From Acidobacteriota bacterium (GTDB lineage Bacteria; Acidobacteriota; Terriglobia; Terriglobales; SCQP01), in NCBI GenBank assembly GCA_004299485.1, contig SCQP01000008.1, forward strand, positions 132,341-196,340: DNA of 64,000 nucleotides, read 5' to 3'. Of the stretch, positions 14,118 to 53,482 are shown piece by piece (position 1 is the first letter of the stretch; every line of letters begins with the position of its first letter). Position numbers and translations under genes: made by a program. Below the pieces are notes generated by a model. The model made no database searches and was not told the DNA's origin. It worked only from the letters and a program-made list of their open reading frames with translations.

Positions 14118-14154
14118 GGGAGCAGTGGGTTGATGCTAGCATGGAGTTGCTGTC

Positions 14155-14225
14155 GGGCGTTGGAGTTCGCCTTACCCAACCGCTCTAGCTCCTAAATGGG
14201 GCCGGAGCAGATGACTCCTACCAAA
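14155..14225 (+). ncRNA. fluoride riboswitch (crcB motif)
   Basis: GGCGUUGGAGUUCGCC...AACCGCU..GCUCC..GGAGC.AGAUGACUCCUACC. P1 is GGCG/CGCC. GGAGU pairs with the downstream ACUCC as a pseudoknot. The 3' GAUGACUCCUAC closely matches the Bacillus cereus crcB motif as I remember it. It sits directly upstream of crcB. Confidence 0.85.
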
Positions 14226-14247
14226 TCATTGGCAGGAGTTAAATTTT
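14215..14247 (+). terminator. riboswitch expression platform: terminator-like hairpin + U-tract that also covers the crcB SD
   Basis: CTCCTACCAA-ATCA-TTGGCAGGAG (10 bp, 1 mismatch) followed by TTAAATTTT. The 5' arm overlaps the pseudoknot strand. GGAG (14235-14238) is the likely SD for the TTG start at 14246. Confidence 0.7.
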
Positions 14248-14680
14248 GGCTACAACCGTTTCTGTGCCTGCTGAAGTGGTGCAGCATGCGCTTTCCGGGC
14301 GCACGCTGGCGCTGGGCATTGCCATCGCGGGGGCGCTGGGCGCGCTGAGCCGCTGGGGACTGGGGCAGTGGCTGGAGGTGTTAGGCGGAGGACACTTCCC
14401 CTACGACACGCTGGCCGCGAACCTGATCGGCTGCTTCCTGCTGGGCTTCGTGATGCACATCGGCGGCCACGCACGCTGGATCAGCGGCGAGATGCGCACC
14501 ATCATCGCGGTGGGATTTATCGGCGCCCTGACAACGTTTTCCACCTGGGAGTTCGAAACACTGCACATGGCGCGCGGCGGCGAAGTGCTGCTGGCGGCGG
14601 GCAACTTCGCGGTGAACGTATTTTTGGGGTTCCTGCTGATTTGGGCGGGCGGACGGCTCGCCACGGGGCTACTGCACTAA
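14246..14680 (+). CDS. crcB: fluoride ion channel CrcB/FluC
   Basis: GALGALSRW, NLIGCFLLGF and GFIGALTTFSTWEFE motifs. TTG start as in the track; the start is uncertain. Confidence 0.9.
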   Translation: MATTVSVPAEVVQHALSGRTLALGIAIAGALGALSRWGLGQWLEVLGGGHFPYDTLAANLIGCFLLGFVMHIGGHARWISGEMRTIIAVGFIGALTTFSTWEFETLHMARGGEVLLAAGNFAVNVFLGFLLIWAGGRLATGLLH

Positions 14681-22181: not shown

Positions 22182-23279
22182 TCAGTGCCGCAGGTCGCGG
22201 TGCGCCAGGGTGGGGCGGTAGCCCAGCTTGCGCAGCTCGCGCCGCAAGGCCTCGGCGATATAGACGGAGCGGTGGCGTCCGCCGGTGCATCCGACGGCGA
22301 TATTCAGATAGCTCTTGCCCTCCTCGATGTAATGGGGGATGAGGTAGGCCAGCAGATCGCGGATGCGGGTGAGGAACTCGGCGGTCTGGGGAAAGGAGCG
22401 GATGTATTCGGCCACCTTGCGGTCGCGGCCGTCATGCGCCTGCAGGGCGGGGATGTAGTTGGGATTGGGCAGGAAGCGGACATCAAAGACCAGATCGGCA
22501 TCGCTGGGGACGCCGCTGCGGAAGCCGAAACTGGTGACCGCGATCTGCAGGCTGGGAGCGAGACCGGCTTCAATGACGTGCTCGCGCAGGAAGGCGCGCA
22601 GCTCGTGGACGTTGAAGCGGGAGGTATCGACCACGAGGTCGGCGGCGGCGCGGATTTTCGCCAGGGCCTTGCGTTCCGCCTCGATGCCACGGCGGAGCTC
22701 CGTTTCGCCTTTGCGGCGGTCGCGGCCGTGGCTGCCATCGCGCTCGGCGAGGGGGTGGGGGCGGCGGGTTTCGCTGAAACGGCGCAGAATGGCTTCGTCA
22801 CTGGCTTCCAAAAAGAGCAGCGTCAGCCGCAGAGGTGAGTCGCGCAAGGTTTGCAGCAGGGCGGGCAGCGCCTCGAGGCGCTGGCCTTCACGGATATCGA
22901 CGACGGCGGCGACACGCTTCACTTCGCCGGAGCCGTCAAACGAGGCCTGGCGGACCAAATCGACGAAGGGACCGATCAGGCCGACGGGCAGATTATCGAC
23001 ACAGTAGTAGCCGGAATCCTCAAAGACTTTTTCGGCCGAACCCTTGCCGCTGCCACTCAGACCGGTAATGACTACGACGTGCAGATCCGATGGCGTTCGG
23101 GTTCGGTTGTGCGGCGCGCGGCGCCGCGAGTGCGGCCGCCGGCCCACTCCCTGTGCCCGCGCAACCGCGTGGCTCGCCACTTTTTGCCCTGGTCGCTCCC
23201 GTTGGTCGCTGGGAGTGCGGGCTTCGATTCCCGGCAGGGTCCGCCCGCTGGCGCTCCGGACTCCCCGAGGCGTCTTCAT
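22182..23279 (-). CDS. rapZ: RNase adapter protein RapZ (start codon uncertain; the ATG-initiated ORF includes a repeat-derived N-terminal extension)
   Basis: VVITGLSGSGKGSAEKVFEDSGYYCVDNLP and the C-terminal GCTGGRHRSV motif. The Walker A begins near residue 72 of the ORF, versus near the N-terminus in typical RapZ as I recall. The only ATG (23279) overlaps the rpoN stop as ATGA. Confidence 0.85.
   Translation of the reverse strand: MKTPRGVRSASGRTLPGIEARTPSDQRERPGQKVASHAVARAQGVGRRPHSRRRAPHNRTRTPSDLHVVVITGLSGSGKGSAEKVFEDSGYYCVDNLPVGLIGPFVDLVRQASFDGSGEVKRVAAVVDIREGQRLEALPALLQTLRDSPLRLTLLFLEASDEAILRRFSETRRPHPLAERDGSHGRDRRKGETELRRGIEAERKALAKIRAAADLVVDTSRFNVHELRAFLREHVIEAGLAPSLQIAVTSFGFRSGVPSDADLVFDVRFLPNPNYIPALQAHDGRDRKVAEYIRSFPQTAEFLTRIRDLLAYLIPHYIEEGKSYLNIAVGCTGGRHRSVYIAEALRRELRKLGYRPTLAHRDLRH
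23169..23264 (+). repeat. 110-nt repeat family 1, copy 1 (right end diverged)
   Basis: GTGGCTCGCCACTTTTTGCCCTGGTCGCTCCCGTTGGTCGCTGGGAGTGCGGGCTTCGATTCCCGGCAGGGTCCGCCCGCTGGCGCTCCGGACTCC. It matches copies 2-4 over about 96 nt. Confidence 0.85.
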
Positions 23280-24838
23280 CGCACACGCCGCTGGTGCGTG
23301 GACGGGATGTGCATGTCCTCGCGGTATTTGGCGACGGTGCGGCGGGTGACGTCGATGCCCTGCTGCTTGAGCACCGCGGCAACCTGGTCGTCGGTGAGGG
23401 GGTGCTTGGGATCTTCCTCCGCGATCAGCTTTTTGACGCGGCGCTTGAGAATCAGCAGCGAGGTTTCGCCGCCGCGCACGCCCTGGACAGCCTCGGTGAA
23501 GAAGAAACGCAGTTCGAAGACGCCCTGGCTGGTATGGACGTACTTATTGGCGACGGCGCGGCTGACGGTGGAGGGGTGGACGCCGATCTCCTCGGCGACC
23601 TCCTTGATCATCATGGGTTTGAGGAAATCCATGCCGAAGTCGAGAAAGTCGCTCTGGCGCTCGACGATGGTGTGGCAGACGCGGGCGATGGTCTGCTTGC
23701 GCTGCTCCAGGTTGCGCAGGAACTGGATGGCGCTGGCGTAGCGCTCTTTGATGTAGCGGCTGGTGTCGCGCTGCTCGCGGCCGAACTTCATGTCGCGGTA
23801 CTGATAGTTCAGACGCAGGTTGGGCATGCCGTCATCGTTCATGATGATCTGATACGGATTGCGGCAGGACTCGGAGCCGCAGATGGGACAGCGCTCGGCG
23901 CGGCCCTTGACGAAAGCGACGTCGGGCTCGATGAGGCGGGTGTTGGCGGGATTGTAGCGGCGGCCGGGGAAGGGATCGAGCTTGCGGATCTCGGCGAGCG
24001 CCCCGGCAATCTCTTCCTCGCTGACATTGAGTGTGCGCGCCAGCTCCTGGCGGCGGGGATTCTGCAGGGCGGGCAGGTGCTCGCTCACCAGGGCGATCGC
24101 CAGAATCTGGACGCTGGGAAGCTGGAAGAGCTGGATGAGGAGGCATTCGCGCAGATCGCGGGCGCCCACGCCGGGCGGATCGAAGCGCTGCACCAGATTC
24201 AGGGCTTCGCGCATGAGGTCTTCGGCGATGCCCTCGCCGGTGGCGATTTCCTCGATGCGCAGCGGGCGTCGGCCCTTGTCGTCCTCGGCGGTGAGATAGC
24301 CGTCCTCGTCCAGATTGCCGATGATGGCTTCGGCGGCCTGGCGGAGGCCGTTATCGATAGGCTCGACGCTGAGTTGCCAGCGCAGGTGATCGGTGAGGGT
24401 GGTGGGGGCACTGAGGAAGTTGTCGAAGGAGGGGCGGTCGATCTCCTCGCGCTCGTGGGGCTGATAGCCGGGGTCGAGATAGTTCTTGAAGAAATCGCCG
24501 TAATCGATCTCCTCGAACGAATCCTTGGCGGGCGCCTCGGCGCCAGCTTCGGGCGTGCTGCCATCGGCAGGCGCAGGCGCGGCGGCGGCCGGCGCGGGGG
24601 TGCGCTCCATCTCGTTCTGGCGCTGCAGGTCCTGCTCGAGACGCGTCAACTCGTCCAGACCGGGAGCGTTGCCGTCCTCCTGGTTTTCGTCGAGCATGGG
24701 ATTTTCGAGCAGCTCGTGACTGATGGCTTCCTGCAACTCGAGCTTGTTCATGGCCAGGATATTGACCATTTGCACGAGCCCGGGCGTGAGCGTCTGCTTG
24801 AGGGCCGGCTTGGCGATCAGCTTGGGGCCAAGATTCAT
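23276..24838 (-). CDS. rpoN: RNA polymerase sigma-54 factor
   Basis: The internal Met gives MNLGPKLIAKPALKQTLTPGLVQMVNILAMNKLELQEAISHELLENPMLDE. The C-terminal RpoN box is present (ARRTVAKYRE). Confidence 0.93.
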   Translation of the reverse strand: MNLGPKLIAKPALKQTLTPGLVQMVNILAMNKLELQEAISHELLENPMLDENQEDGNAPGLDELTRLEQDLQRQNEMERTPAPAAAAPAPADGSTPEAGAEAPAKDSFEEIDYGDFFKNYLDPGYQPHEREEIDRPSFDNFLSAPTTLTDHLRWQLSVEPIDNGLRQAAEAIIGNLDEDGYLTAEDDKGRRPLRIEEIATGEGIAEDLMREALNLVQRFDPPGVGARDLRECLLIQLFQLPSVQILAIALVSEHLPALQNPRRQELARTLNVSEEEIAGALAEIRKLDPFPGRRYNPANTRLIEPDVAFVKGRAERCPICGSESCRNPYQIIMNDDGMPNLRLNYQYRDMKFGREQRDTSRYIKERYASAIQFLRNLEQRKQTIARVCHTIVERQSDFLDFGMDFLKPMMIKEVAEEIGVHPSTVSRAVANKYVHTSQGVFELRFFFTEAVQGVRGGETSLLILKRRVKKLIAEEDPKHPLTDDQVAAVLKQQGIDVTRRTVAKYREDMHIPSTHQRRVR

Positions 24839-24845
24839 AGGCAGC

Positions 24846-25586
<741 letters not shown>

Positions 25587-25642
25587 GGGAAGAGGGAAAG
25601 GGGCGGGGCGCGTTGGGGTGATTGTAAGCTAGTGAAAACGAA

Positions 25643-27943
25643 TTAGTTACGTCCCTTGGTTTTTCCCAAAACGCGGGTTCCGGACTTGCCACCCACCTGA
25701 ATTTCATCACTCGACAGAGAAAAAGTCAAGGGATCACCGGTGATTTTGCCGTGTTCGGCATCCAAAATGCTGGGGGGTCCGCCGTCCAGGCGGACCTGGT
25801 TGCTGGCAAAGTCATAGCTAAGCCGGGCAGCATGCGCGCTGCGTCCGGGCTGGCGGAGGGCGACGCCGCCGGTCGCTTGCGCACGCTCCAGAGATGGTGA
25901 ATTGCCTGAGGTGCTGAGATAGATGGTCAGTTGCGGAGCGGAGAGCGTTGCATCATCCACCGCGAGGCGAACGGCGCCGCTGTAGCGCGCCTGGTGAGCG
26001 GCTGCCGAATAAACCAATTGGCGCGCCCGCACCCGCACGGCACGCTCGTGGCCAGCCGCAGTGTGTGTGAGTTGCCGGTTGAGGCTCCCAACAGAGCTGC
26101 GGTTGGCGAGGAAATCGGTTTGCACATCACCGGTGGCAAGGAGCTGGGCGGGCATGCCATTGGCTCCGGCGGTGATGGTCAACCGACCGGCGCGCAGCAG
26201 ACTTGGGGCTTGCAGCAAGCGCACGGAGCCGGTGAAGACTGCGGTGCCGCGAAAGCTGGCCGCGGAGGTGGGTTTCGGGCCGGCAGGCTGGTCCCAATGG
26301 ACGCTCCCGGCGGTGATGACGACCGGTCGGTTGGCGGCGAGCATGGGGCCGACGTTGGAGGAACGGCCGGAAAGGCTGAGTTCGATGTTACCCGCAGGCG
26401 CGGCGTGGGCCGACAGACTGGCGCTGCCATCGGGATGACTGATCCAAGTGGCCGCCTCGGCGGAAAATGCGGCCTGGGGATCGGAGCCGTGGACGCTGCC
26501 TGTGAGGATGGCTTTGCCGTCGGCGGGGGTATAGGTGAGCTGCTGCGCCGAAAGCTCACGCTCGCCCGCGCGCAACTGAACGTCGCCGGTTTCGACGACT
26601 TTGCCCGGCTGAGCGCCGCGGCCGGCAGAGGGAGAAAATTCGATCTGCAGCGATTGGCTCTGCGAGGTGCGTTCGATGCCGTTGACGGTCTGATGAACCG
26701 CGACGTGGCCGCGGGCACGCAGAAGGCGCGGCTGCTGATTCCCCGCGAGCGTAAGCTGCAACTGGTCGGCGGCAGCGCGCAGAGGGCCGCGCACGATCTC
26801 TGTCCGCCCCTGGCTGGAAACGGCGATGAGGCTGGGAACTGGGCGGCCCGCGGCGGAGGGGCCAAAGGCAAAGTCGAGTTCGGGAGCGGCGAGGCGCTGG
26901 GGTACAGCGCCGGTTTCGGTAAGCACGGCGTTCTGGCGCGCGATCAGCATGTGCAGGATATTGGCGGGGGCGAAGCGCAGCGCAAGCTGGCCGGCGCGCA
27001 GGCGGCGGAGTAAATACTGACCGCGCAGGGTCTGGGTCTGCTCGGCGAGGACATGGCCGTCGAGTTCGAGGCGCTGCAACTTTTGTGTTGCCCGAGTAAA
27101 CTCCGCGTGGCCGGTATCGGCACGAACGCGTAAGGGTTCGCTCACGGTGGCGTTGGTGGCCAACACATGGCCGCTGGCATCGAGGCGCTGCAGGGCGTAG
27201 GTGGGGCTGACGGCAACCACGAAATGATCTGCCGCGAGCGACTGGACGCCCTGCCGCAGATAGGCATGGCCATCCAGATTGATGGTGACGGCGCCAGAGG
27301 ACAGTCGTTGCAGGCGGGCGGAGTCGCTCCTGAGATTGAGATCGGGCTGGCGCGCTCGCGGCCAGTCGAGTTGCACTCCACCGGCGAAACTGGCCTGGCC
27401 GCGGTGACTGTCCAACTCGACGGAAGCGGCGCGGCCGCGCGCGCCGCCCATGGCAAAAAGAACGCCATGGGCAATGGAGCCAGTACCCTGCTTGACGTTA
27501 TAACGCAGGCCGCGGGCGGTGAGGTCCACTTGGCGCTCGAGCTGAATATGCACCAGGCCGTCGGCTTGCAAATCGCCGCTCGCCTGATCGTAGCGGAAGG
27601 CGGCGCCGCTGATTTCGTCAGCATTGCGGCCCTGGCCATCGTAGACCAGGATGCGGACCTGGTGGAGCGCAACCACCCCGCCGGAGCGCAGCTTGTCGGC
27701 CCGGGAGGCATACACGCGGAACACCGGGCGGCCATTCACCGATTTAGAAATGTCCACGCCGGCAGCGCTTTGCTGCACCTGCAAACCGAGCAGCGGTGCA
27801 GTGGGTGCGGGATGGCGGCGGCGCTGGACGAAATAGGTCGCCGCCAGCGCGACCGCGCCGAGGACCAGAGCAGCGGCAATGCCGCGGCGGAGGCGCGTCA
27901 GGCGCTCGACGCGCCGGGTGTAGGGATTGGGCGCGCTGGGCAT
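25643..27943 (-). CDS. large LptC/LptA (OstA-like) repeat protein with N-terminal membrane anchor
   Basis: 766 aa. It has a single N-terminal TM (AAALVLGAVALAATYF). It has the beta-rich, low-hydrophobicity repeat texture of OstA-like jellyrolls, and sits immediately upstream of lptB. The assignment rests partly on context. Confidence 0.5.
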   Translation of the reverse strand: MPSAPNPYTRRVERLTRLRRGIAAALVLGAVALAATYFVQRRRHPAPTAPLLGLQVQQSAAGVDISKSVNGRPVFRVYASRADKLRSGGVVALHQVRILVYDGQGRNADEISGAAFRYDQASGDLQADGLVHIQLERQVDLTARGLRYNVKQGTGSIAHGVLFAMGGARGRAASVELDSHRGQASFAGGVQLDWPRARQPDLNLRSDSARLQRLSSGAVTINLDGHAYLRQGVQSLAADHFVVAVSPTYALQRLDASGHVLATNATVSEPLRVRADTGHAEFTRATQKLQRLELDGHVLAEQTQTLRGQYLLRRLRAGQLALRFAPANILHMLIARQNAVLTETGAVPQRLAAPELDFAFGPSAAGRPVPSLIAVSSQGRTEIVRGPLRAAADQLQLTLAGNQQPRLLRARGHVAVHQTVNGIERTSQSQSLQIEFSPSAGRGAQPGKVVETGDVQLRAGERELSAQQLTYTPADGKAILTGSVHGSDPQAAFSAEAATWISHPDGSASLSAHAAPAGNIELSLSGRSSNVGPMLAANRPVVITAGSVHWDQPAGPKPTSAASFRGTAVFTGSVRLLQAPSLLRAGRLTITAGANGMPAQLLATGDVQTDFLANRSSVGSLNRQLTHTAAGHERAVRVRARQLVYSAAAHQARYSGAVRLAVDDATLSAPQLTIYLSTSGNSPSLERAQATGGVALRQPGRSAHAARLSYDFASNQVRLDGGPPSILDAEHGKITGDPLTFSLSSDEIQVGGKSGTRVLGKTKGRN

Positions 27944-28030
27944 TCGCTATTAAGGATATGCCGGGCGGGTGATCCGCGTCACAGCCAAGGGATCGGCGGG
28001 GAGCCAGAGTAAACGTCGGGAGGGTAGGCC

Positions 28031-35015: not shown

Positions 35016-35048
35016 CAGTGGTCAGTGGTTAGTGGTTAGTGGTCAGTG
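35016..35048. repeat. heptanucleotide tandem repeat (YAGTGGT x4.5) overlapping the recJ start codon
   Basis: CAGTGGT CAGTGGT TAGTGGT TAGTGGT CAGTG, read directly. The last GTG (35046) is the recJ start in the track. Confidence 0.9.
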
Positions 35049-36716
35049 AAGACGAACTCTGCCGACAGGATTCAGGTGGCGCTGGGGGTGTCGCCTCTTT
35101 TGGCGCGGCTGCTGGCCGAGCGCGGGTGGAGTGAAATTGAAGCCGTTACGGAGTTTTTGTATCCGCGACTGGAGCATACTCATTCGCCTTGGCTGATGCT
35201 GGGGATGGAGCCAGCCGTTGCGCGGACTTTGCGGGCCATCGCCGCCGGCGAGAGCATACGGATTCTCGGGGACTATGACGTCGATGGGACGATTGCGACC
35301 GTCATTTTGCGGCAGGCGCTGAAGACACTGGGGGCCGAAGTTAGCTATGAGCTGCCGGAGCGTCTGGGCAATGGGTATGGGTTGCGGGCGGAAACGTTCG
35401 AGCGCGCGGCAGCGGATGGCGTAAAGCTGGCGATTACGGTCGATAACGGCATCCGCGAGCAGGAGGCGCTGGAGCGGGCGCAGGCGCTGGGCATCGACGT
35501 AATCATCACCGATCACCATTTGCCGCCACAAACATTGCCGACGGTGGTGGCGATTGTGAATCCGCATCAGGCGGGTTGCGAATATCCGGATAAGAATTTA
35601 TGCGGGTCGGGGGTGGCGTTCAAGCTGGCGCAGGCGCTGCTGGAGCGCAGCGGCAAGCTGGAGGGCACGTGGCCGGCGGGGCTGCGGTCATATTTGAAGC
35701 TGGTGGCGATCGCGACGGTGGCGGATGCAGTGCCGCTGCTGGGAGAAAACCGGGTGTTTGCGCGGTTTGGGTTGGAGGGGCTGGAGCGGCCGGTGAATCC
35801 CGGGCTGCGGGCGCTGCTGGGATTTGCGATGGCGAAGGGAAAAACGCGCGTCACCAGCCGGGATGTGGCGTTTGGGCTGGCGCCGCGGCTCAATGCCGCG
35901 GGCAGGATGGGCGCGGCGGATCGGGTGGTCGAGCTATTCTCTGCCCCGGCGGCGGAGGCGGGTGGGATTGCGCAGGCGCTGGAGGGGCTGAACCAGGAGC
36001 GGCAGCAGTGCTGCGCGCGGATGCTGGCGGAAATTGAAGCGCGGGGGCTGGGCGAGGAGCCCGGGGTGCAGGTCATTTCCGGCGAGGGTTGGCACCGGGG
36101 CGTGCTGGGGATTGTGGCCAACAAGGTGGTGGAGAGGACACAGCGGCCGGTGGTGATCGTGAGCCTCGAGGAGGGACGGGCACATGGGTCGGGACGGGCG
36201 CCGGACGGGATGCATTTGCTACAGGTCATCGAAGGCTGCGGAGATCTGTTTGACCGCTTTGGCGGACATGCGCAGGCGGTGGGGTTTTCAATGGACGCGG
36301 GCAAGCTGGAGGCGCTGCGGACCTACCTGGCGCAGGCGGAGATGCCTACGCCGGCTCGCAAAAACGCGGAGTATTTCGAGGTCCGGCTGAGCGAGTTGAC
36401 GCCGCCGATTTGCAAAGAACTGGCGCGCCTGCAGCCGTTCGGGGAAGGCAACCCCGAGCCCGTCCTGCGGGTGCGGGGCGCGCGGCTGGCGGAGGCGCCG
36501 CAAGTCCTGAAAGAGCGTCATTTGAAGCTGGTGGTCGAAGAGGATGGGGTGCGGCATACGGCGCTGCTGTGGAATTCGACCGATTGCGCACGGCTGGCGC
36601 CGGGAGTGGAACTGGAGCTGATCGGGCGGCTGGAGACGACGATGCACGAGCGCTTTGGGGAGCAGACCCGGCTGATGCTGCGTGAGTTTTTCGTGACCTC
36701 GGCAGCAGTTCTGTGA
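35046..36716 (+). CDS. recJ: single-stranded-DNA-specific exonuclease RecJ
   Basis: DHH motifs GDYDVDGT, DNGI and ITDHH, plus the DHHA1 region GGHAQAVG. Confidence 0.92.
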   Translation: MKTNSADRIQVALGVSPLLARLLAERGWSEIEAVTEFLYPRLEHTHSPWLMLGMEPAVARTLRAIAAGESIRILGDYDVDGTIATVILRQALKTLGAEVSYELPERLGNGYGLRAETFERAAADGVKLAITVDNGIREQEALERAQALGIDVIITDHHLPPQTLPTVVAIVNPHQAGCEYPDKNLCGSGVAFKLAQALLERSGKLEGTWPAGLRSYLKLVAIATVADAVPLLGENRVFARFGLEGLERPVNPGLRALLGFAMAKGKTRVTSRDVAFGLAPRLNAAGRMGAADRVVELFSAPAAEAGGIAQALEGLNQERQQCCARMLAEIEARGLGEEPGVQVISGEGWHRGVLGIVANKVVERTQRPVVIVSLEEGRAHGSGRAPDGMHLLQVIEGCGDLFDRFGGHAQAVGFSMDAGKLEALRTYLAQAEMPTPARKNAEYFEVRLSELTPPICKELARLQPFGEGNPEPVLRVRGARLAEAPQVLKERHLKLVVEEDGVRHTALLWNSTDCARLAPGVELELIGRLETTMHERFGEQTRLMLREFFVTSAAVL

Positions 36717-36754
36717 TAGCGTAAGCGCGTTGGTGTCTCGGGAGGGAAACGCGG

Positions 36755-37051
36755 ATGGAAGCTTTGGGAATGATTGAAACCAGAGGCCTGGTGGGTTCGA
36801 TTGAAGCCGCCGACGCCATGGTGAAGGCCGCCAACGTGGTCCTGCTGGGCAAGGAATATATCGGCGCCGGCTATGTGACGGTAATGGTGCGCGGCGACGT
36901 GGGCGCGGTCAAGGCGGCCACGGACGCGGGCGCGGCAGCGGCGCGGCGAGTGGGCGAACTGGTGAGCGTTCACGTGATTCCGCGGCCGCACAGCGAAGTC
37001 GAAAAGATTCTGCCGAACAAGGGCGTCATCCCCGCCGACAGCAAGAAGTAA
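36755..37051 (+). CDS. bacterial microcompartment shell protein, BMC-H (PduA/EutM-like)
   Basis: [79 protein letters not shown]. This is near-colinear with PduA as I remember it. Confidence 0.93.
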
Positions 37052-37063
37052 GGCGGAGCCGGC

Positions 37064-38782
37064 GTGGCCAACGCGGCACAATCCGTAGCTGAGGCACGCG
37101 AGCTGATCGAGCGCGCGCACGCGGCCTGGCAGACCTACCGCGAATTTTCACAGGCCCAGGTGGACGCCATTGTGGGCGCCATGGCGGCAGCCGCAACTGC
37201 ACATGCGGAGCGGCTGGCGAAACTGGCGGTCGACGAGACCACCTACGGCAAGGTCGCCGACAAAATCCAGAAGAACCTGTTTGCCTCGGAGAAGGTCTAC
37301 AGCGCCATCCGGGACATGCGCACCGTGGGCCCGCTCAGCGAAGACCGAGAGCGCGGCATCATCGAGATGGGGGTTTCGATGGGGGTAGTGGCGGCGATAC
37401 TTCCCTGCACCAACCCTACGTCGACTGCCATTTACAAGATCCTGATTTCGCTCAAGGCGGGTAACGCGATTGTGCTGAGTCCGCATCCGGCGGCGATGCG
37501 CTGCATTTGCGAGACCGTGGGGCTGATGCATCAGGCGGCGGTGGCGCAGGGTGCGCCGGGCGATCTGATCGGCTGCTTTTCGACGCCGACGCGCGAAGGC
37601 ACGCAGGAGATGATGTCGCACCGGCGCACCAAGGTGATTCTGGCGACGGGCGGCATGGGCATCGTGAAGGCCGCCTATAGCTCGGGCAAGCCGGCGTTTG
37701 GGGTGGGACCAGGCAATGTGCCGGCGTACATCGACCGCTCGGCGGATGTGGCGCGGGCGGTGGGGCACGTAGTCGCGGGCAAGAGCTTTGACTGGGGCAC
37801 GATTTGCTCCTCCGAGCAGGCGCTGGTGGCGGAGACGGCGCTGCGCGAGCCGATTCTGGCGGAGCTGAAAAAGCAGAACGTCTATTTGATGTCGCCGGAA
37901 GAAGCGGACAAGATGGGCAAGACGCTGATCCATCCGGAGACGTTCACGGTCAACGCCAAATGTGTCGGCCAGGCGCCGCAAAAGCTGGCAGCGATGGCGG
38001 GGTTTGGCGAGAAGGTGGGGCCGGAAATTCGTGTGCTGGCCGCGGAACTGGCGGGCATGGGCAAGCAGTATCCGCTCTCGGCGGAAAAACTGTCGCCGGT
38101 GCTGGCGCTGTTTTTTCTCCCGGACCGGGTGCGCGCGATGGACCGCTGCCGCGACCTGCTGCACTTTGGCGGCCTGGGACATACGTGTGTGATTCACGCC
38201 CAGGATGAAGCCGTGATCCGCGATTACGGAGCGCGCATGCCGGCGTACCGCGTGGTGGTGAACAGCCCCTCGCCGCAGGGATCGATTGGCCTCACGACAA
38301 ACCTGTTTCCAGCCATGACGCTGGGCTGCGGAGCGATTGGCGGCAACATCACCAGCGACAATATTGGACCGCAGCACTTGATGAACATCAAGAGAATCGC
38401 GTGGGACAAAGGGGAGCGAGTCAGCGGGTCAGCGGATCAGCGGGTCAGCGGGGTGGGGGCGCCGGTGGGATCCACGTGTACCTGTCAGCACGCCGCGCCC
38501 AAGGATGAGCTGCGAGCGACGGTCGAGCGCATCCTGGCGGAACGCGGCATCCATCCTGCCCCCGAGGCAACCCCGCCGGCCCCTGACCCCAGGCCCCTGA
38601 CCCCTGCCTTCACGCCGCCGCCACTACCGCCGAAGCCCAAGCCGGTGGCGTTTGTGTGCGAAGCGGATGTGCGCGAGGCGGCGAACGCGGGCAGGAAAAT
38701 TGCGATTGGCCCAAAGACTATCGTGACGCCCGCAGCGCGGGATCTGGGGCGTGAGCGCGACATATTTTTGGTCACCACGTAG
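37064..38782 (+). CDS. acylating (CoA-dependent) aldehyde dehydrogenase, AdhE-N/EutE/PduP-like, with a ~125-aa C-terminal extension
   Basis: GTG start. [12 protein letters not shown], catalytic-Cys context [11 protein letters not shown], and [24 protein letters not shown] at the end of the ALDH fold (near residue 445). An extension follows, containing an amphipathic helix, a Pro-rich linker and a ~45-aa terminal module. Confidence 0.88.
38421..38452. repeat. octanucleotide tandem repeat (TCAGCGGR x4) inside the ALDH coding sequence
   Basis: TCAGCGGG TCAGCGGA TCAGCGGG TCAGCGGG, read directly. It encodes ..[11 protein letters not shown].. at the junction between the ALDH fold and the extension. 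Confidence 0.9.
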
Positions 38783-38807
38783 GCTGGGCACGAGCATCTA
38801 AAGACGC

Positions 38808-39935
38808 ATGCTCGACACGCGCGAGGTGCTTGCTCTGCCGCAAATTGGGGAGCCGGTTCTCACCGCCTATCTCGACACCGATCCTGCCAATCCCCGTAAC
38901 CAGGGCCGCAAGGGGCCGGCAACATGGCTGCGCTCGGAAGCCCGGCGGCTAGTGGCGGCGTGGGGACCGTCGGAGCGAGAAGCCTGCCTGGCGCAGGCGG
39001 AACGAGTCGCCGAGTATCTGATGGACCGGCGCGGCGGAGGATCGAAGGGGCTGGTGGTATTTGCGGGTCCCAGGACTTGGCGCTTGCTGCCGCTGCAGGT
39101 GCGCGTGGAGGAGGAAATCTACTGGGGCGAGCCGGCGTTGGGGCAACTGCTATGGCTGCTGGACGAACATCAGCCCTGTGGGATCGTGGTGGTCAGCCGG
39201 GGCGGAGCGCGGTTTTTCCGGTACCGGATGGGTGAGATCGAGGAGGATGCCGCACGGCCCCTGCAGCTTGACACGTCGCAGTGGCGTAAGATTACGCGGG
39301 TGATGGGGCCCGGCGACGAGAAGGACATTTTTGAGCGCCGGCTCGCGGCCAACCACCAGCGCTTCTACGAGAGCGTGGCTACGGAAACGCAGCGATGGAG
39401 CGAGCGCGAGCGGTTGGAGCCGGTGCTGCTGCTGGGAGACACGAAAGCCGTTGCGCAGGTGCAGGCAGCGCTGCCGGAAGCATTTGCGGCGCGGGTGCTC
39501 AGCTCGGAGCGGAATATCACCTGCGAACGCGCCAGCGAAATCGTGGCGGTCGCGGAGCCGCTGATCCAGCAGTGGAAGCGCGAGCGGGAGCGCGCGGATG
39601 TGCAGCGCCTGCTGGAACAGCGGACGCGACCGGATGTGGTCACCGGTTTCGAGGCGACGCTGAACGCGCTGCAGGAGGGTCGCGTGCGCGAACTCATCGC
39701 CATGCGCGACCTGCGCGGGCGTGTGCGCGCCTGCCCTTCGTGCGGCTGGGTGGAGCGGGGCGGGCCGGCGGAGTGTCCCCAGTGCGGCCATGAACGGCCA
39801 GTGCAGTCGCCGCGCGCGGTGCTGCCGCAATTGGCGCAGGCGCGGGGCGTGCCGGTGGAGATTGTGGCCGGCCCAGCGGCCGAGGAGCTGGAGCGTGGCG
39901 CGGGAGGCCTGGCCGCTTGGCTCAGGGCGGCGTAA
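38808..39935 (+). CDS. bacterial eRF1-like (baeRF1 / Vms1-VLRF1-like / host-attachment family) protein with C-terminal zinc ribbon
   Basis: The layout matches baeRF1 families as I remember them. N-terminal ..PVLTAYLDTDP.., then GLVVFAG, PxLxxLLWLLDEHQPCGIVVVSRGGARFF, then a helical RFYESVA region and LLLGDTKAVAQVQAALP. CPSCGW..CPQCG lies at residues ~309-330. Confidence 0.7.
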   Translation: MLDTREVLALPQIGEPVLTAYLDTDPANPRNQGRKGPATWLRSEARRLVAAWGPSEREACLAQAERVAEYLMDRRGGGSKGLVVFAGPRTWRLLPLQVRVEEEIYWGEPALGQLLWLLDEHQPCGIVVVSRGGARFFRYRMGEIEEDAARPLQLDTSQWRKITRVMGPGDEKDIFERRLAANHQRFYESVATETQRWSERERLEPVLLLGDTKAVAQVQAALPEAFAARVLSSERNITCERASEIVAVAEPLIQQWKRERERADVQRLLEQRTRPDVVTGFEATLNALQEGRVRELIAMRDLRGRVRACPSCGWVERGGPAECPQCGHERPVQSPRAVLPQLAQARGVPVEIVAGPAAEELERGAGGLAAWLRAA

Positions 39936-39960
39936 GCCCGTCTGGTATGCTGGGGCCAGA

Positions 39961-40197
39961 ATGGTGATTCACGTTCGTGCGTTTTGGGATTGCGAAGCTA
40001 AGGTTTGGGTCGCGGAATCGTCCGACGGGCCCGGGCTGGTCACCGAGGCTACTGGACCCGATGCGCTTCAGGCGAAGCTGCGGGTTCTGATACCCGAGTT
40101 ACTTGAAGCTAATGGTCTATCTGCGCCGGCTGAGCCCGATTTCACCGTGGAGTTGGTCGCGGCCTACGCTGAGCCTGTGGCGCCCGCTCGAGTGTAG
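39961..40197 (+). CDS. DUF1902 (HicB-like N-terminal fold) protein
   Basis: The internal ATG of track ORF 39721..40197 gives MVIHVRAFWDCEAKVWVAESSDGPGLVTEATGPDALQAKLRVLIPELLEANG, the DUF1902 pattern as I recall it. Confidence 0.65.
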   Translation: MVIHVRAFWDCEAKVWVAESSDGPGLVTEATGPDALQAKLRVLIPELLEANGLSAPAEPDFTVELVAAYAEPVAPARV

Positions 40198-40233
40198 ATA
40201 ACATTCACACCGCGAACGGCGTGCTGAAGCAGG

Positions 40234-41139
40234 CTACGCGGCGCGGCGGACGACGGGGAACATCGCGCGGAGGTCCTCGGGGAGCTGGTCGCGCACCTCC
40301 TCCATCTGGCCGTGCGAGACGAAATCGTGAAGCACGGAAAACAGGGAGATCAGGAAATCGTTGGCGGTGACCGAGTCGAGGCTGAGGGAACGGGAGATTT
40401 CCACCTGCATGGCAGCCGCTGTAACGGCGCGGTCGGGTCCGTCGGCGCAGGAGATCAGGCGCTCGTGCAGCTTGGAGGGGAGCTGAGCGATAGTGTGCTG
40501 CGCCTGCTCGGGCGTGAGGCGATGGCACAACATGCAAATGCCCAGCGCCATGCCGCGTTCGGCACGGTCATGGTCAAGACCTGTGGCCTGCATCACGGCC
40601 GTGATGAAGCGGTCGTTCACGTGCTGGGCGCGGGCTTCGGCGCGCATGCGGGAACGCATCCGGGTGCCGGCATCGGTGGCGCGGGCGGGATGCGGCACGC
40701 CCATGGGCTTGCCGGGCGCTTCGGATTCGACAAGCTGCTCGTGCACGACGGCGCGCAGATCGTCGAGGCGCACCTCGCCGGACAGGACCAGATCGTCGAA
40801 GGTAACTAAGCCGACCGGGCGGTCGGCTTCGAGCAGCGGCAGGTGGCGGACTCCGTAATCGCGCATCAGGCGCGCCACATCGGCGAGATTGGCGCTGATA
40901 GGACAGGTGAGTACACCTTCGGTCATGACTTCATCGAGGGATGTGATGACCGGATCGAGGCCTTCACCGACCACCGAAAGGGCGATGTCGCGGTCGGTGA
41001 GGATACCGGCGAGCCGGCCCTCGCGCGAGACGAGGACGGCTCCGACGTGGTTGTCGGCCATTGCACGCGCGGCCTGATAGACGGTCGAGCGCGCGGAAAG
41101 GATCACGAGTTTTTCGCGGCGGAAGGGTTCGAGGGACAT
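40234..41139 (-). CDS. CBS-pair domain protein fused to DUF2267
   Basis: The N-terminal half has two CBS repeats (VGAVLVSREGRLAGILTDRDI; VRHLPLLEADRPVGLVTFDDL). The C-terminal half has the helical DUF2267-like pattern (RFITAVMQATGLD...LPSKLHERL...EVRDQLPEDL). Confidence 0.75.
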   Translation of the reverse strand: MSLEPFRREKLVILSARSTVYQAARAMADNHVGAVLVSREGRLAGILTDRDIALSVVGEGLDPVITSLDEVMTEGVLTCPISANLADVARLMRDYGVRHLPLLEADRPVGLVTFDDLVLSGEVRLDDLRAVVHEQLVESEAPGKPMGVPHPARATDAGTRMRSRMRAEARAQHVNDRFITAVMQATGLDHDRAERGMALGICMLCHRLTPEQAQHTIAQLPSKLHERLISCADGPDRAVTAAAMQVEISRSLSLDSVTANDFLISLFSVLHDFVSHGQMEEVRDQLPEDLRAMFPVVRRAA

Positions 41140-41158
41140 GTTGAACGCTCCTCAATAT

Positions 41159-41443
41159 TCAGGCGGCCTTGGGTTGCGGAATCGGGTTGAGGTAGTCCTG
41201 ATCGACATAGCACCAGGCCCAATCAGTGCCGGCCCGGTAGGCACGCATGATGGGATGCTTCGTGGCATGGAAATGGGCGGTGGCATGTTTGTTTTTGGAG
41301 CTGTCGCAACAGCCGATGTGGCCGCAGGTGATGCACTTGCGCAGTTGCACCCAGGTGTCGCCGGACTGGAGGCATTCTTCGCAGCCGTTCGGGGTCCGGG
41401 GGGTAACGTGACGGACTTGATCGACGTGTGTGCAGGAGATCAT
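41159..41443 (-). CDS. UBP-type zinc-finger protein
   Basis: CEECL..WVQLRKCITCGHIGCCDSSKNKHATAHFHATKHP. This is the classic zf-UBP Cys/His spacing. Confidence 0.85.
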   Translation of the reverse strand: MISCTHVDQVRHVTPRTPNGCEECLQSGDTWVQLRKCITCGHIGCCDSSKNKHATAHFHATKHPIMRAYRAGTDWAWCYVDQDYLNPIPQPKAA

Positions 41444-41537
41444 AGGCGCAGTCTAGCCGGGATTGCGAGCGGGTGCGAGAAGGCGCGAGGGGACGCGGGG
41501 GAGCACATGGTAAACTGGCACTGCCTTCCTGTTCTGC

Positions 41538-41615
41538 GTCCCCGTCGTCTAGCCCGGCCCAGGACACCGCCCTTTCACGGCGATAACACGGGTTCGAATC
41601 CCGTCGGGGACGCCA
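41538..41615 (+). tRNA. tRNA-Glu (anticodon UUC), CCA encoded
   Basis: Folded by hand. Acceptor GTCCCCG/CGGGGAC, D-arm GTCT/GGAC, anticodon loop CTTTCAC, T-arm ACGGG-TTCGAAT-CCCGT, then GCCA. 78 nt. Confidence 0.92.
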
Positions 41616-41686: not shown

Positions 41687-42010
41687 TCAACCACATAGTA
41701 CCTTGACGCGCATGCGGTAGTTTTCGAAGTTGCGGAAGCCGTAAGCTTGGCGGCTGATCAGTTCCATTTTGTTGTGAAAGCCCTCGGTGATGCCCTTGCT
41801 GCGGCTGAAGCGCCACATGGTGGCGATTTTTTCTGACCAGGAGTAGTGAAGCGTTTCACGCAGTTGCACCAGTTGCGGCAGGCGCGCCTGCCGCAAACCG
41901 CGCGCAAAAAGCGGGCCGCGAGCTGGGCGCGCTGTCAGCGGGTGCGGTTTTTCTTGACCAGCAGATAGCGCAGCCGCTGCTTGAAGCCGTGCGCAACCGG
42001 CTTTGCGCCA
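41687..42010 (-). pseudogene. ISL3-family transposase C-terminal remnant
   Basis: Track ORF 41687..41896 ends ..ITEGFHNKMELISRQAYGFRNFENYRMRVKVLCG, the typical ISL3 C-terminus. Upstream, in another frame, I read ..GFKQRLRYLLVKKNRTR* (frameshifted). There is no N-terminal catalytic part and no inverted repeats were seen. Confidence 0.7.
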
Positions 42011-51497: not shown

Positions 51498-52487
51498 CTA
51501 CCGCATCGCCTGCGCTGCCGCCACTACCGCGCCCAGCTTGGCGATCGCCTCATTGGTGGTGCGCGTTTTCAGGCCGCAATCGGGGTCTACCCAGACGTTC
51601 TCGCGCGGCAGAACGGCCAGGCCTTGTTGCAGCCGTTGGGTAGCCGTGCCCGAGTCTTCGACAACGTGTGAATGCACGTCGACGACGCCGTAGCTGATGT
51701 CCTTGCGAAAGGCGTTTTTGCGGAAGAGATCAAGCATGTCGAGGCCGCTGTTCGACATTTCGAGGTCAAAGTTATCGACCGCCAGCTCCAGCATGGCGGG
51801 ATAAATGCGCTCGAAATCGCCGTAACAGATGTGGGTAAAGAAGTAGGCGTCGAGATCATGCGTCATGAGGCGCATGGCCTCAACCGCGAGCGGCAGCTCG
51901 GCCGGGCGGACTGAAACCGCGGGTTCGTCGAGTTGCACGAACTTGCAGCCTGCCTGGATCAGGGCTTCGACTTCCTTACGGATCTCGCGCGCCAGCGCCA
52001 GGCAGGCGTCGCGACGGGTGGGATAAAACTCGTTGAACGACCAGTCCATCATAGTGTAGGCGCCGGTGAGGATGGCCTTGACGGGCTTGCGGGTGAGCCC
52101 CTGGGCGTAACGCCACCAGTCGAGCGCGATCGGCCCCTTCCATGCGATGGCGCCGGTGATGATGGGCTTGTGATAGTAGCGGTTGCCGTAGGAGCGAACG
52201 AGGCCGCCTTGCGCAAAGCCGGCGAGGTTGTCGGCGAAGTAGGCGGTCATGTCGCCGCGGTACATCTCGCCGTCGACCAGCACATCGAGGCCGAGTTCTT
52301 CCTGCTTGCGAATCCAGAACTCGGTGGCCCGCTGCTCGGCGGCATGCAGGGCATCGGCCGCGATTTGTTTCTGCGCGAAATCGGCGCGGGCCTTCAGCAG
52401 ATAGTCCGGCTTGGGAAAGCTGCCGACCGAGGTAGTGGGCAGCGGCGGGAGCTCGATTCCGAGATGCTGCAACTTGGCCCGGCTCAT
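51498..52487 (-). CDS. metE: cobalamin-independent methionine synthase, catalytic (MetE C-terminal-like) subunit
   Basis: The internal Met gives MSRAKLQHLGIELPPLPTTSVGSFPKP.. Zn-ligand contexts THICYGDF and VDPDCGLKTR are present. There is a 4-nt ATGA overlap with the upstream gene. Confidence 0.82.
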   Translation of the reverse strand: MSRAKLQHLGIELPPLPTTSVGSFPKPDYLLKARADFAQKQIAADALHAAEQRATEFWIRKQEELGLDVLVDGEMYRGDMTAYFADNLAGFAQGGLVRSYGNRYYHKPIITGAIAWKGPIALDWWRYAQGLTRKPVKAILTGAYTMMDWSFNEFYPTRRDACLALAREIRKEVEALIQAGCKFVQLDEPAVSVRPAELPLAVEAMRLMTHDLDAYFFTHICYGDFERIYPAMLELAVDNFDLEMSNSGLDMLDLFRKNAFRKDISYGVVDVHSHVVEDSGTATQRLQQGLAVLPRENVWVDPDCGLKTRTTNEAIAKLGAVVAAAQAMR

Positions 52488-53470
52488 TGCATGCCTCCGG
52501 CAAATTCGCGTTTGAGCGCGCCCAGATGCTGCAATTTGGCGCGGGCGCGGTCGCGCGGCAAGTATTCCAGGCCGCAGGAAGTGGTGAGGTAGGCGCGCGG
52601 CGCCTGGCACTTGTGCAGCATGGCTTCGAGTTGGCGCAGAACCAGGGTGCGGTCCTCGAGGCGAGTATTGCGGCCATCCAATAAGCCAAAGCCGATCTGC
52701 CGGCCGCAGGCTTCGCCGGCGACCACCAGGGGCAGATCCGGACTATAGGTGAAATCCAGCAGGAGCACATCGGCGGGCCAGGCGAGCAGCGTCTTGTACA
52801 GTGGCACGGCATCGCCGAAATACAAGGCCAAGGCCAGCTCTGCCCGCCCTTTGTACGCGGCGATACGGCCGAAGGCCTCCGCCGCCATGCGTACGTCCCT
52901 GGGGTACTGCAGCAGCGCCGGCTCGTCGATCTGGATCAGGCGCGCGCCGGCCCCCGCCAGCGCAGCCACTTCGGCCGCCAGCGCATCGGCCATGGCTTCT
53001 ACGGTTGCCTCGAAGCTGGGCGCGCCGGGTTCACGCAGCGATAAGCGCGCCAGTGTGTAGGGTCCGGTCAGCACCGGCTTGACCGGCCGCACCGCTTTTT
53101 TCGCTGCCCACTGGTATTCGTCCAACACCAGTGGCTGGGTGCGCACGATTTTGCCTTCGACCACGGGCTGGCGGAAGTAGAAGTTGGTGTCGAAGAAGCG
53201 CAGCAAGCCGCCAATGCGCACGCCCGCCAGTTTGCCTGCCAAATGCGAGACCGGATCGTACCAGCGCACCAGGCCATCGGTGACGACGTCGATGTCGGCC
53301 GCGTCCTGCTCCGCCAAGGCTAGGGCGGCGACGCGGTCTTCGGCGGCATGTACGTCGGCTTCGGTCTTTTCCCCGCGATCAAGCTGGGCGATAGTCTTGC
53401 GCAGGATTTGCTCCTCCGGTGTGCTGCCAATGCGCGGATAGCTCCCGTGGGTCAGTGTGCGAAGTTCCAT
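52484..53470 (-). CDS. MetE N-terminal-domain-like protein (second half of a split MetE)
   Basis: 328 aa with a UROD/MetE barrel-like pattern (THGSYPRIG, LVRWYDPVSH, RFFDTNFYFRQP). Translationally coupled to the catalytic half. Confidence 0.7.
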   Translation of the reverse strand: MELRTLTHGSYPRIGSTPEEQILRKTIAQLDRGEKTEADVHAAEDRVAALALAEQDAADIDVVTDGLVRWYDPVSHLAGKLAGVRIGGLLRFFDTNFYFRQPVVEGKIVRTQPLVLDEYQWAAKKAVRPVKPVLTGPYTLARLSLREPGAPSFEATVEAMADALAAEVAALAGAGARLIQIDEPALLQYPRDVRMAAEAFGRIAAYKGRAELALALYFGDAVPLYKTLLAWPADVLLLDFTYSPDLPLVVAGEACGRQIGFGLLDGRNTRLEDRTLVLRQLEAMLHKCQAPRAYLTTSCGLEYLPRDRARAKLQHLGALKREFAGGMQ

Positions 53471-53482
53471 AGCGCGAACCTC

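Follow-up and report, generated by a model that had tools for sequence, protein, structure and literature searches.

Positions 36,755 to 40,197 of the 64-kb stretch of Terriglobales (Acidobacteriota) DNA analysed here, which we call the window, carry four co-directional genes directly downstream of recJ. They encode a hexamer shell protein of bacterial microcompartments (BMC-H), a CoA-acylating aldehyde dehydrogenase (ALDH), a protein with the fold of archaeal and eukaryotic release factor 1 (aeRF1; baeRF for the bacterial families) and a small DUF1902 protein. We conclude that this 3.4-kb stretch probably consists of two independent modules juxtaposed in a Terriglobales genome: a BMC-H/ALDH pair of the type found as a satellite locus of the ACI microcompartment, and a module built around a homologue of the ribosome hibernation factor Balon. 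An earlier note, made from the sequence alone, had described the four genes as a minimal microcompartment-like operon with spacers of 12–38 nt. Its layout stands: all four genes lie on the forward strand as described, with spacers of 38 nt (recJ/BMC-H), 12 nt (BMC-H/ALDH), 25 nt (ALDH/baeRF) and 25 nt (baeRF/DUF1902) calculated from the coordinates, and Pfam and NCBIfam matches agree with the identity it had given to each product. Both modules belong to known kinds, and the finding is largely ordinary.

The BMC-H and ALDH genes form a tightly coupled unit of their own that is conserved across Acidobacteriota. The shell protein matches PF00936 with an E-value of 5e-29 (100.5 bits, cutoff 24.5) as a single BMC domain, reaches 135 bits against the NCBIfam EutM model (cutoff 133), and its sequence displays the PRPH motif of the hexamer interface (IPRPHSEV). 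A search with the ALDH recovered 251 relatives in GTDB species representatives, and the loci of the best 80 were examined. Apart from five that are assigned to other phyla, these 80 derive from Acidobacteriota metagenome-assembled genomes (MAGs); Terriglobales come closest (70–86% identity), with Acidiferrales, Solibacteraceae, Vicinamibacterales and others at 47–60%. At 77 of the 78 assessable loci the ALDH gene is immediately preceded by a BMC-H gene, the other two of the 80 being truncated by contig ends. The sole assessable locus whose tailed ALDH truly lacks an upstream BMC-H is L020 (1–3528), where a large open reading frame (ORF), GAF-GGDEF-like as judged by eye, abuts the ALDH gene in its place.

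Outside the pair, gene content follows the clade. The flanks are made up of different housekeeping genes, such as lptA/lptB/rpoN/rapZ, comM, pilM/pilC, an M23 peptidase gene or VTT/RuvC genes. The idea that a third gene is a conserved partner of the pair was rejected, as clustering of the neighbours returned only clade-specific housekeeping genes and spurious overlapping ORFs of the sort common in high-GC DNA. Across ~90 loci, the ~10 kb around the pair yielded neither a pentamer shell gene (BMC-P) nor a second BMC-H. In a homologue search with the shell protein the best 120 matches were all 84–98% identical, too alike to distinguish main-locus from satellite copies; a locus recovered in this way (P0102) proved to be another isolated pair. 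The exact ALDH protein of the window was found elsewhere only on an 8.4-kb Logan contig.

The ALDH scores 566 bits against the NCBIfam model for acetylating acetaldehyde dehydrogenase (TIGR02518), 518 bits against AdhE and 246 bits against the PduP/EutE-type subfamily, and its best matches among solved structures are the acetylating ALDHs 5j78 and 3k9d and the N-terminal domain of AdhE. The motif FD-x-G-x-x-C-x-SEQ, which holds the active-site cysteine in enzymes of the AdhE/EutE kind, is intact. Alignment of 77 orthologues revealed a constant order of elements after the catalytic core: a variable linker, an amphipathic helix, a linker rich in proline and alanine, and a domain of ~45 amino acids. 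The helix resembles an encapsulation peptide (EP), as the earlier note had pointed out, and it occupies the same position near the C-terminus in most of the orthologues, for example as LARRIDQFLASRGY in one of them; it is not evident in L049 and L064. The ~45-aa domain is present in all 77, with the consensus [DA]FV[CS]E.[DE]VR.A...G.KI.IG..TI[VI]TP[SA]ARDLG. It gave no sequence match in Pfam or the PDB and weakly matches the C-terminus of TIGR02536, a hypothetical protein of ethanolamine utilisation (E = 0.006).

By this tail architecture and by published description, the pair fits closely the AldDh satellite locus of the ACI microcompartment, as far as can be judged from sequence. The ACI type was defined in the catalogue of Sutter et al. 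2021 (PMC8217296, Supplementary Data 2) on 125 loci, all from Acidobacteria. Its main locus combines shell genes (a BMC-P triplet and a BMC-H) with genes for a class II aldolase bearing a C-terminal EP and for a 2-hydroxyacid dehydrogenase. Its AldDh (pfam00171) is always encoded separately, on a satellite locus that sometimes includes a BMC-H (PMC8217296). In this AldDh, a ~50-aa domain of unknown function comes after an EP placed close to the C-terminus (PMC8217296). In the published classification the ACI AldDh belongs to an ACI/MIC3 clade, and the BMC-H to the H_fuchsia or H_royalpurple type (PMC8217296). A keyword search of the literature on microcompartments in Acidobacteriota yielded nothing relevant.

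Since the AldDh of ACI is always on a satellite locus, the lack of a BMC-P near the pair is what would be expected. The window itself agrees with the gene inventory of the earlier note, which had listed no BMC-P, no BMC-T, no signature enzyme, no phosphotransacylase and no alcohol dehydrogenase. None of the Pfam-scanned ORFs of the window, defined as those passing a coding filter on GC content at third and second codon positions (GC3/GC2), which excluded a few short ones, encodes a BMC-P, BMC-T, aldolase, lyase, phosphotransacylase or alcohol dehydrogenase. A tblastn search with the BMC-H protein found no second shell gene in the window, and a hidden Markov model built from three seeds validated as PF03319 found no BMC-P there. 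The 64 kb thus hold no canonical metabolosome main locus, as judged by BMC-P, aldolase, lyase, phosphotransacylase and alcohol dehydrogenase. One of the suggestions of the earlier note, a satellite shell/ALDH locus serving a main BMC encoded elsewhere, agrees closely with the published ACI satellite; the main locus was not seen within the window or within ~10 kb of the relatives' pairs.

The third gene product is best read as a homologue of the Balon-type ribosome hibernation factors, judging by family and predicted fold. It matches PF18854 (baeRF_family10) with an E-value of 9e-23. Its best NCBIfam match is the MSMEG_1130 ribosome-hibernation family (NF052288) at 71.9 bits, far below the cutoff of 480, which makes it a distant relative within baeRF_family10 and not an MSMEG_1130 orthologue. 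The sole PDB sequence match is Msmeg1130 Balon (E = 1e-5, residues 66–373). An AlphaFold2 model built from 37 homologues (predicted local distance difference test, pLDDT, 89; predicted template-modelling score, pTM, 0.82) has a compact three-domain Balon-like fold, and Foldseek placed the Balon of M. smegmatis first (8v9l_z, E = 1.7e-24, TM-score 0.80), with P. urativorans Balon at 0.70 and eRF1/aRF1 at ~0.5. The sequence contains neither GGQ nor NIKS, and such traits, the fold together with the absence of both motifs, are those by which Balon has been set apart from release factors (PMC10901736). The loop equivalent to the eRF1 GGQ loop is shortened in the clade of the window and has no conserved glutamine across the 37 homologues, so no catalytic release or peptidyl-tRNA factor is indicated; assignment as a VLRF1-type catalytic factor was rejected on the same ground. 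In the alignment the four zinc-ribbon cysteines (C309, C312, C323 and C326) hardly vary, and the aligned stretch of M. smegmatis Balon has no cysteines. Keyword searches of the literature returned no paper connecting Balon with microcompartments and none on baeRF1.

Pairwise identities between the window and the related locus L173 differ among the genes: 93% for the ALDH, 89% for the CBS-DUF2267 protein and only 79% for the baeRF protein. This suggests faster divergence of the baeRF gene, which could reflect relaxed or diversifying selection, or recombination.

What separates the two modules is the distribution of their adjacency. The earlier note had proposed a novel functional link between a compartmentalised aldehyde-oxidising step and a ribosome-directed factor, and had asked for conservation of the BMC-H/ALDH/baeRF/DUF1902 order across Acidobacteriota MAGs; the order is not kept outside one narrow Terriglobales subclade, to which the adjacency is confined, and the proposed link is not supported by this comparison. 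Among the best 80 ALDH loci, a baeRF gene follows the ALDH, besides the window (L001), only in L002, L004 and L005, and further look-ups added L087/L088, L173, L174 and L175. In a neighbour-joining tree of the ALDH core, the full-length members with an adjacent baeRF (the window, L002, L004, L005 and L088) fall into one Terriglobales subclade together with L003, which has no baeRF and carries the zf-UBP gene directly after the ALDH gene. The simplest reading of this pattern would be one gain and one loss of the adjacency, which is absent from ~70 other genomes bearing the pair. The junction itself is 25 nt in the four closest strains and ~200–330 nt in L002, L005 and L088, and in L004 it widens to 1.06 kb with DUF1801 and DUF2249 genes interposed. 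The reciprocal comparison gave the same picture: the pair is present at only 2 of 85 further loci of baeRF homologues (L087 and L088), collected by a metagenome scan with alignment A1 and three look-ups. In the MAG GCA_016201285.1, the pair (L035, contig JACQDE010000034) and a baeRF homologue (L086, contig JACQDE010000043) lie on different contigs.

The baeRF gene has recurrent neighbours of another kind. Over 89 loci of the baeRF subfamily, the most frequent is a CBS-domain gene (13–20 loci), found in both convergent and co-directional orientation and often as the CBS-pair + DUF2267 fusion that stands convergent to baeRF in the window. An IF-2B-family gene lies directly upstream of baeRF at 11 loci, and a YbaK-like tRNA_edit gene (8 loci), an HSP20 gene (6 loci) and a gene for an Rce1-like protease (6 loci) also occur nearby; L085, L086 and L098 are among the loci that illustrate the last four. 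The fusion adjoins baeRF in the window and in L002, L089, L117, L125, L126, L128, L136 and L173, with homologues 33–79% identical. The recurrent CBS neighbours indicate that the right half of the supposed operon would belong with the CBS-DUF2267 gene as a stress or dormancy module, and the zinc-ribbon Balon-like gene and CBS-DUF2267 may form a pair of hibernation factor and energy sensor. The mycobacterial protein Hrp1 is a CBS-pair protein. A mycobacterial Balon copy adjoins the gene of this hypoxia-response factor (PMC10901736). No paper on DUF2267 together with CBS was retrieved by keyword search.

Taken together, these observations suggest how the two modules may work and how they came to be neighbours. 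In the first, the C-terminal helix would anchor the ALDH on the inner surface of a shell. The pentamers and further hexamers of this shell, like the aldehyde-producing aldolase, would be encoded elsewhere, and the adjacent BMC-H hexamer would be produced in step with its ALDH cargo. Inside the shell the enzyme would convert an aldehyde, presumably supplied by the ACI aldolase, to acyl-CoA with NAD+ and CoA. In the second, the Balon-like protein would, under stress, sit in the A site of ribosomes that are idle, and the CBS protein, a candidate nucleotide sensor, may couple hibernation to the adenine-nucleotide or energy status of the cell. A single insertion at the root of one Terriglobales subclade would have placed the second module between the ALDH gene and the zf-UBP/tRNA-Glu pair, and the DUF1902 gene would join it in some strains.

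Several points weigh against this two-module reading. No ACI main locus is evidenced for the genome of the window or for any Terriglobales, with coverage limited to the 64-kb window and the surroundings of the loci, and the catalogue assigns ACI chiefly to subdivisions 4 and 6 of the Acidobacteria and not to subdivision 1 (PMC8217296). The satellite assignment was made by comparison with the published description, and the hibernation-factor assignment of the baeRF protein is one of fold and family, not of orthology (72 vs 480 bits). Finally, the closest strains keep a tight junction, with the 25-nt spacer at four loci and no terminator detected, and such a stable junction makes co-transcription, and hence co-regulation, plausible within the subclade.

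This last point bears on two alternatives that bind the modules together. The stronger version is a true functional operon, in which the Balon-like protein, perhaps with DUF1902, would be a component or client of the microcompartment and tie translation arrest or peptidyl-tRNA processing to aldehyde oxidation. Its appeal lies in the co-directional genes, the 25-nt spacer free of terminator-like sites, a junction that is identical in the four closest strains, and an adjacency kept in most members of one subclade. Against this, the adjacency amounts to one gain and one loss on the ALDH tree, ~70 other pair-bearing genomes lack it, 83 of the 85 other baeRF loci have no pair, one MAG carries the two on different contigs, and unrelated genes are interposed in L004; the DUF1902 gene is strain-variable and of foreign composition, and no EP-like extension was noticed on the compact baeRF model, for which no search aimed at one was made. 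We regard a functional operon as highly improbable. In the weaker version, transcription that starts at the BMC-H/ALDH promoter would run on into the gene of the hibernation factor on entry into a fermentative or low-energy state, with no physical link between the products. The tight spacing, the absence of a detected terminator and the weak Shine-Dalgarno sequence of baeRF speak for it, and acetylating ALDHs typically serve fermentative, redox-balancing metabolism. The mycobacterial Balon homologues are, moreover, induced by hypoxia (PMC10901736). Still, the gaps of 200–1060 nt in the relatives could hold a separate promoter, and this reading draws on sequence only, with pattern scans that are uninformative for Acidobacteria promoters; we consider co-regulation of this kind doubtful. 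For the window strain itself, read-through from ALDH into baeRF is plausible, given the 25-nt spacer and the lack of a terminator-like site.

A different alternative concerns the pair alone. The Terriglobales pair could be an orphan minimal assembly that works without a closed shell, with neither BMC-P nor a main locus in the genome, in which sheets or tubes of hexamers scaffold the EP-tagged ALDH. The absence of BMC-P, BMC-T and a signature enzyme from the 64 kb, and from ~10 kb around the pair at ~90 loci, is what such an assembly predicts, and the pair occurs in more lineages than the two main subdivisions of ACI (251 relatives, including Terriglobales, Acidiferrales and Solibacteraceae). 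However, a missing BMC-P nearby is equally expected of a satellite (PMC8217296), the encapsulation-type helix kept in most orthologues is most simply explained by a shell target, and the evidence covers loci, not whole genomes, so an orphan assembly appears unlikely to us. Its combination with the preceding idea, an orphan pair without pentamers or an ACI main locus that is transcriptionally fused to a dormancy module of zinc-ribbon Balon and CBS-DUF2267, is very unlikely. Were it true, a scaffolded step forming acyl-CoA would be switched on together with ribosome hibernation at low energy or oxygen. We therefore retain two independent modules as the probable explanation, and their features are collected in the table.

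Features at and around the juxtaposed modules (positions in the window; A, BMC-H/ALDH pair; B, Balon-like module)
Feature	Position	Strand	Remarks
RecJ gene	35046..36716	+	DHH, DHHA1 and RecJ_OB domains; in neither module
BMC-H hexamer shell protein gene	36755..37051	+	Module A; 98 aa; PF00936
CoA-acylating ALDH gene with C-terminal targeting tail	37064..38782	+	Module A; 572 aa; PF00171, TIGR02518
EP-like amphipathic helix of ALDH	38501..38551	+	aa 480-496; 77-orthologue alignment
~45-aa C-terminal domain of ALDH	38642..38779	+	aa 527-572 (FVCEADVR...TPAARDLG); 77-orthologue alignment
Balon-like aeRF1-fold gene, baeRF family 10	38808..39935	+	Module B; 375 aa; PF18854
CxxC...CxxC zinc ribbon in C-terminal domain of baeRF protein	39732..39785	+	Residues 309-326; 37-sequence alignment
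DUF1902/TTHA1013-like small protein gene	39961..40197	+	78 aa; PF08972
CBS-pair + DUF2267 gene	40234..41139	-	Module B; convergent with baeRF gene; PF00571 + PF10025
zf-UBP gene	41159..41443	-	PF02148
tRNA-Glu(UUC)	41538..41615	+	ARAGORN and Rfam
ISL3-family transposase, C-terminal fragment	41687..41896	-	PF01610, E = 2e-15; profile positions 179-240 of 240 only

The fourth gene of the row is a strain-variable accessory gene of foreign composition that looks recently acquired. Its product matches PF08972 (E = 1e-17) and TTHA1013 (1wv8, E = 7e-15); in comparison with HicB-like antitoxins, the 78-aa protein covers DUF1902 only, and the gene is flanked by intergenic stretches of 25 and 36 nt. The impression of recent acquisition comes from its low GC3 (0.62 vs 0.76–0.81 in the neighbours) combined with patchy presence among strains whose ALDHs are ~90% identical: the window, L174 and L175 have the gene, and L173 (ALDH 93% identical) and L002 do not.

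It lies in a zone between the ALDH gene and the zf-UBP/tRNA-Glu pair whose content varies within the clade. The zf-UBP gene is the ancestral right-hand neighbour of the ALDH gene, directly after it in L003 and shortly downstream in L006 and L008, none of which has a baeRF gene. The zone is bounded by the tRNA-Glu(UUC) gene, which is kept at the same position in L005, L006, L008 and L011; in the window the ISL3 transposase fragment follows it, and content on either side of the tRNA varies among Terriglobales. On the left, a radical SAM-RecJ arrangement upstream of the pair is found mainly in the Terriglobales clade, with RecJ also upstream in L003–L006, L008, L011 and L012; elsewhere RecJ or radical SAM genes lie downstream. 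An AhpC/TSA peroxiredoxin gene separates recJ from BMC-H in L005, L006, L008, L011 and L088 and is lacking in the window, L003 and L004, where the recJ/BMC-H gap is 38–76 nt. Farther out, L019, L022, L024 and other loci from several further Acidobacteriota clades have lptA-like, lptB, rpoN and rapZ genes directly after the pair. The window carries its lptA-like and rpoN genes at 23276–27946 on the reverse strand, ~9 kb upstream of the pair and opposite to it, which suggests that an old linkage may have been broken by rearrangement.

Regulatory signals around the locus were sparse. A pattern scan of 36400–41600 detected no promoter-like sites, a result that is uninformative for Acidobacteria promoters, and terminator-like sites only at the level expected by chance. 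The sole useful terminator-like hairpin lies between the DUF1902 and CBS genes, and the same scan detected none between ALDH and baeRF. The start codon of baeRF is preceded by a weak Shine-Dalgarno sequence only. For the window and ten relatives, Rfam found no riboswitch or other regulatory RNA close to BMC-H.

Elsewhere in the window, a fluoride riboswitch (RF01734, 38 bits) was identified at 14147–14227 on the forward strand, directly upstream of crcB (14243–14680). At 51498–53482 on the reverse strand, two overlapping ORFs both match domains of cobalamin-independent methionine synthase and may represent a frameshifted or split metE.

The outcome removes a false lead, as the apparent connection between a microcompartment and a translation factor comes down to a single lineage-restricted juxtaposition. 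At the same time, the BMC-H/AldDh pair with its helix-linker-domain tail spans many Acidobacteriota orders, a wider range than the two subdivisions of the 2021 catalogue, and this directly raises the question of whether every genome bearing the pair also has an ACI main locus. The repeated pairing of the zinc-ribbon branch of Balon with CBS-DUF2267 suggests a way in which soil bacteria might link hibernation to their energy status.

Among known systems, the AldDh satellite of ACI is the closest to the pair. It comes from the same phylum and shares a pfam00171 AldDh apart from pentamer genes (in the window and within ~10 kb around the relatives' pairs), a helix near the C-terminus followed by a further domain, of ~45 aa here, and a neighbouring BMC-H, which here has standard PRPH interface motifs. 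The pair differs from the published description in that its association with BMC-H is near-universal (77 of 78 loci) and not occasional, in that its host belongs to Terriglobales (subdivision 1) and not to subdivisions 4 and 6, the main sources of ACI, and in that the main locus was not seen within the 64-kb window or ~10 kb around the relatives' pairs. With the canonical main loci of metabolosomes (PDU, EUT, GRM), the window shares a BMC-H and a CoA-acylating ALDH with a targeting helix. Unlike them, it lacks pentamer and trimer genes as well as a signature enzyme, a phosphotransacylase and an alcohol dehydrogenase, its ALDH is nearer to TIGR02518 and the AdhE N-terminal domain than to PduP/EutE (566 vs 246 bits), and the targeting helix is C-terminal.

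The baeRF protein shares the aeRF1 superfamily fold with the VLRF1-type proteins Vms1 and ANKZF1, after which NCBI names its homologues. It departs from them in having GDE at the position of the catalytic loop, where distant homologues have GSQ, GSM or GTL, and its best structural match is Balon and not a release or rescue factor. Compared with the described Balon factors (P. urativorans Balon, Msmeg1130 and Rv2629; PMC10901736), the protein is only ~21% identical to Msmeg1130, has in its C-terminal domain a zinc ribbon absent from Msmeg1130, and carries a middle-domain loop that is shortened in the clade of the window. It nevertheless resembles them in its aeRF1-like fold of three domains, which matches Msmeg1130 best, in lacking GGQ and NIKS, and in neighbours of a stress type that include a CBS-pair protein, comparable to Hrp1 beside the mycobacterial copy.

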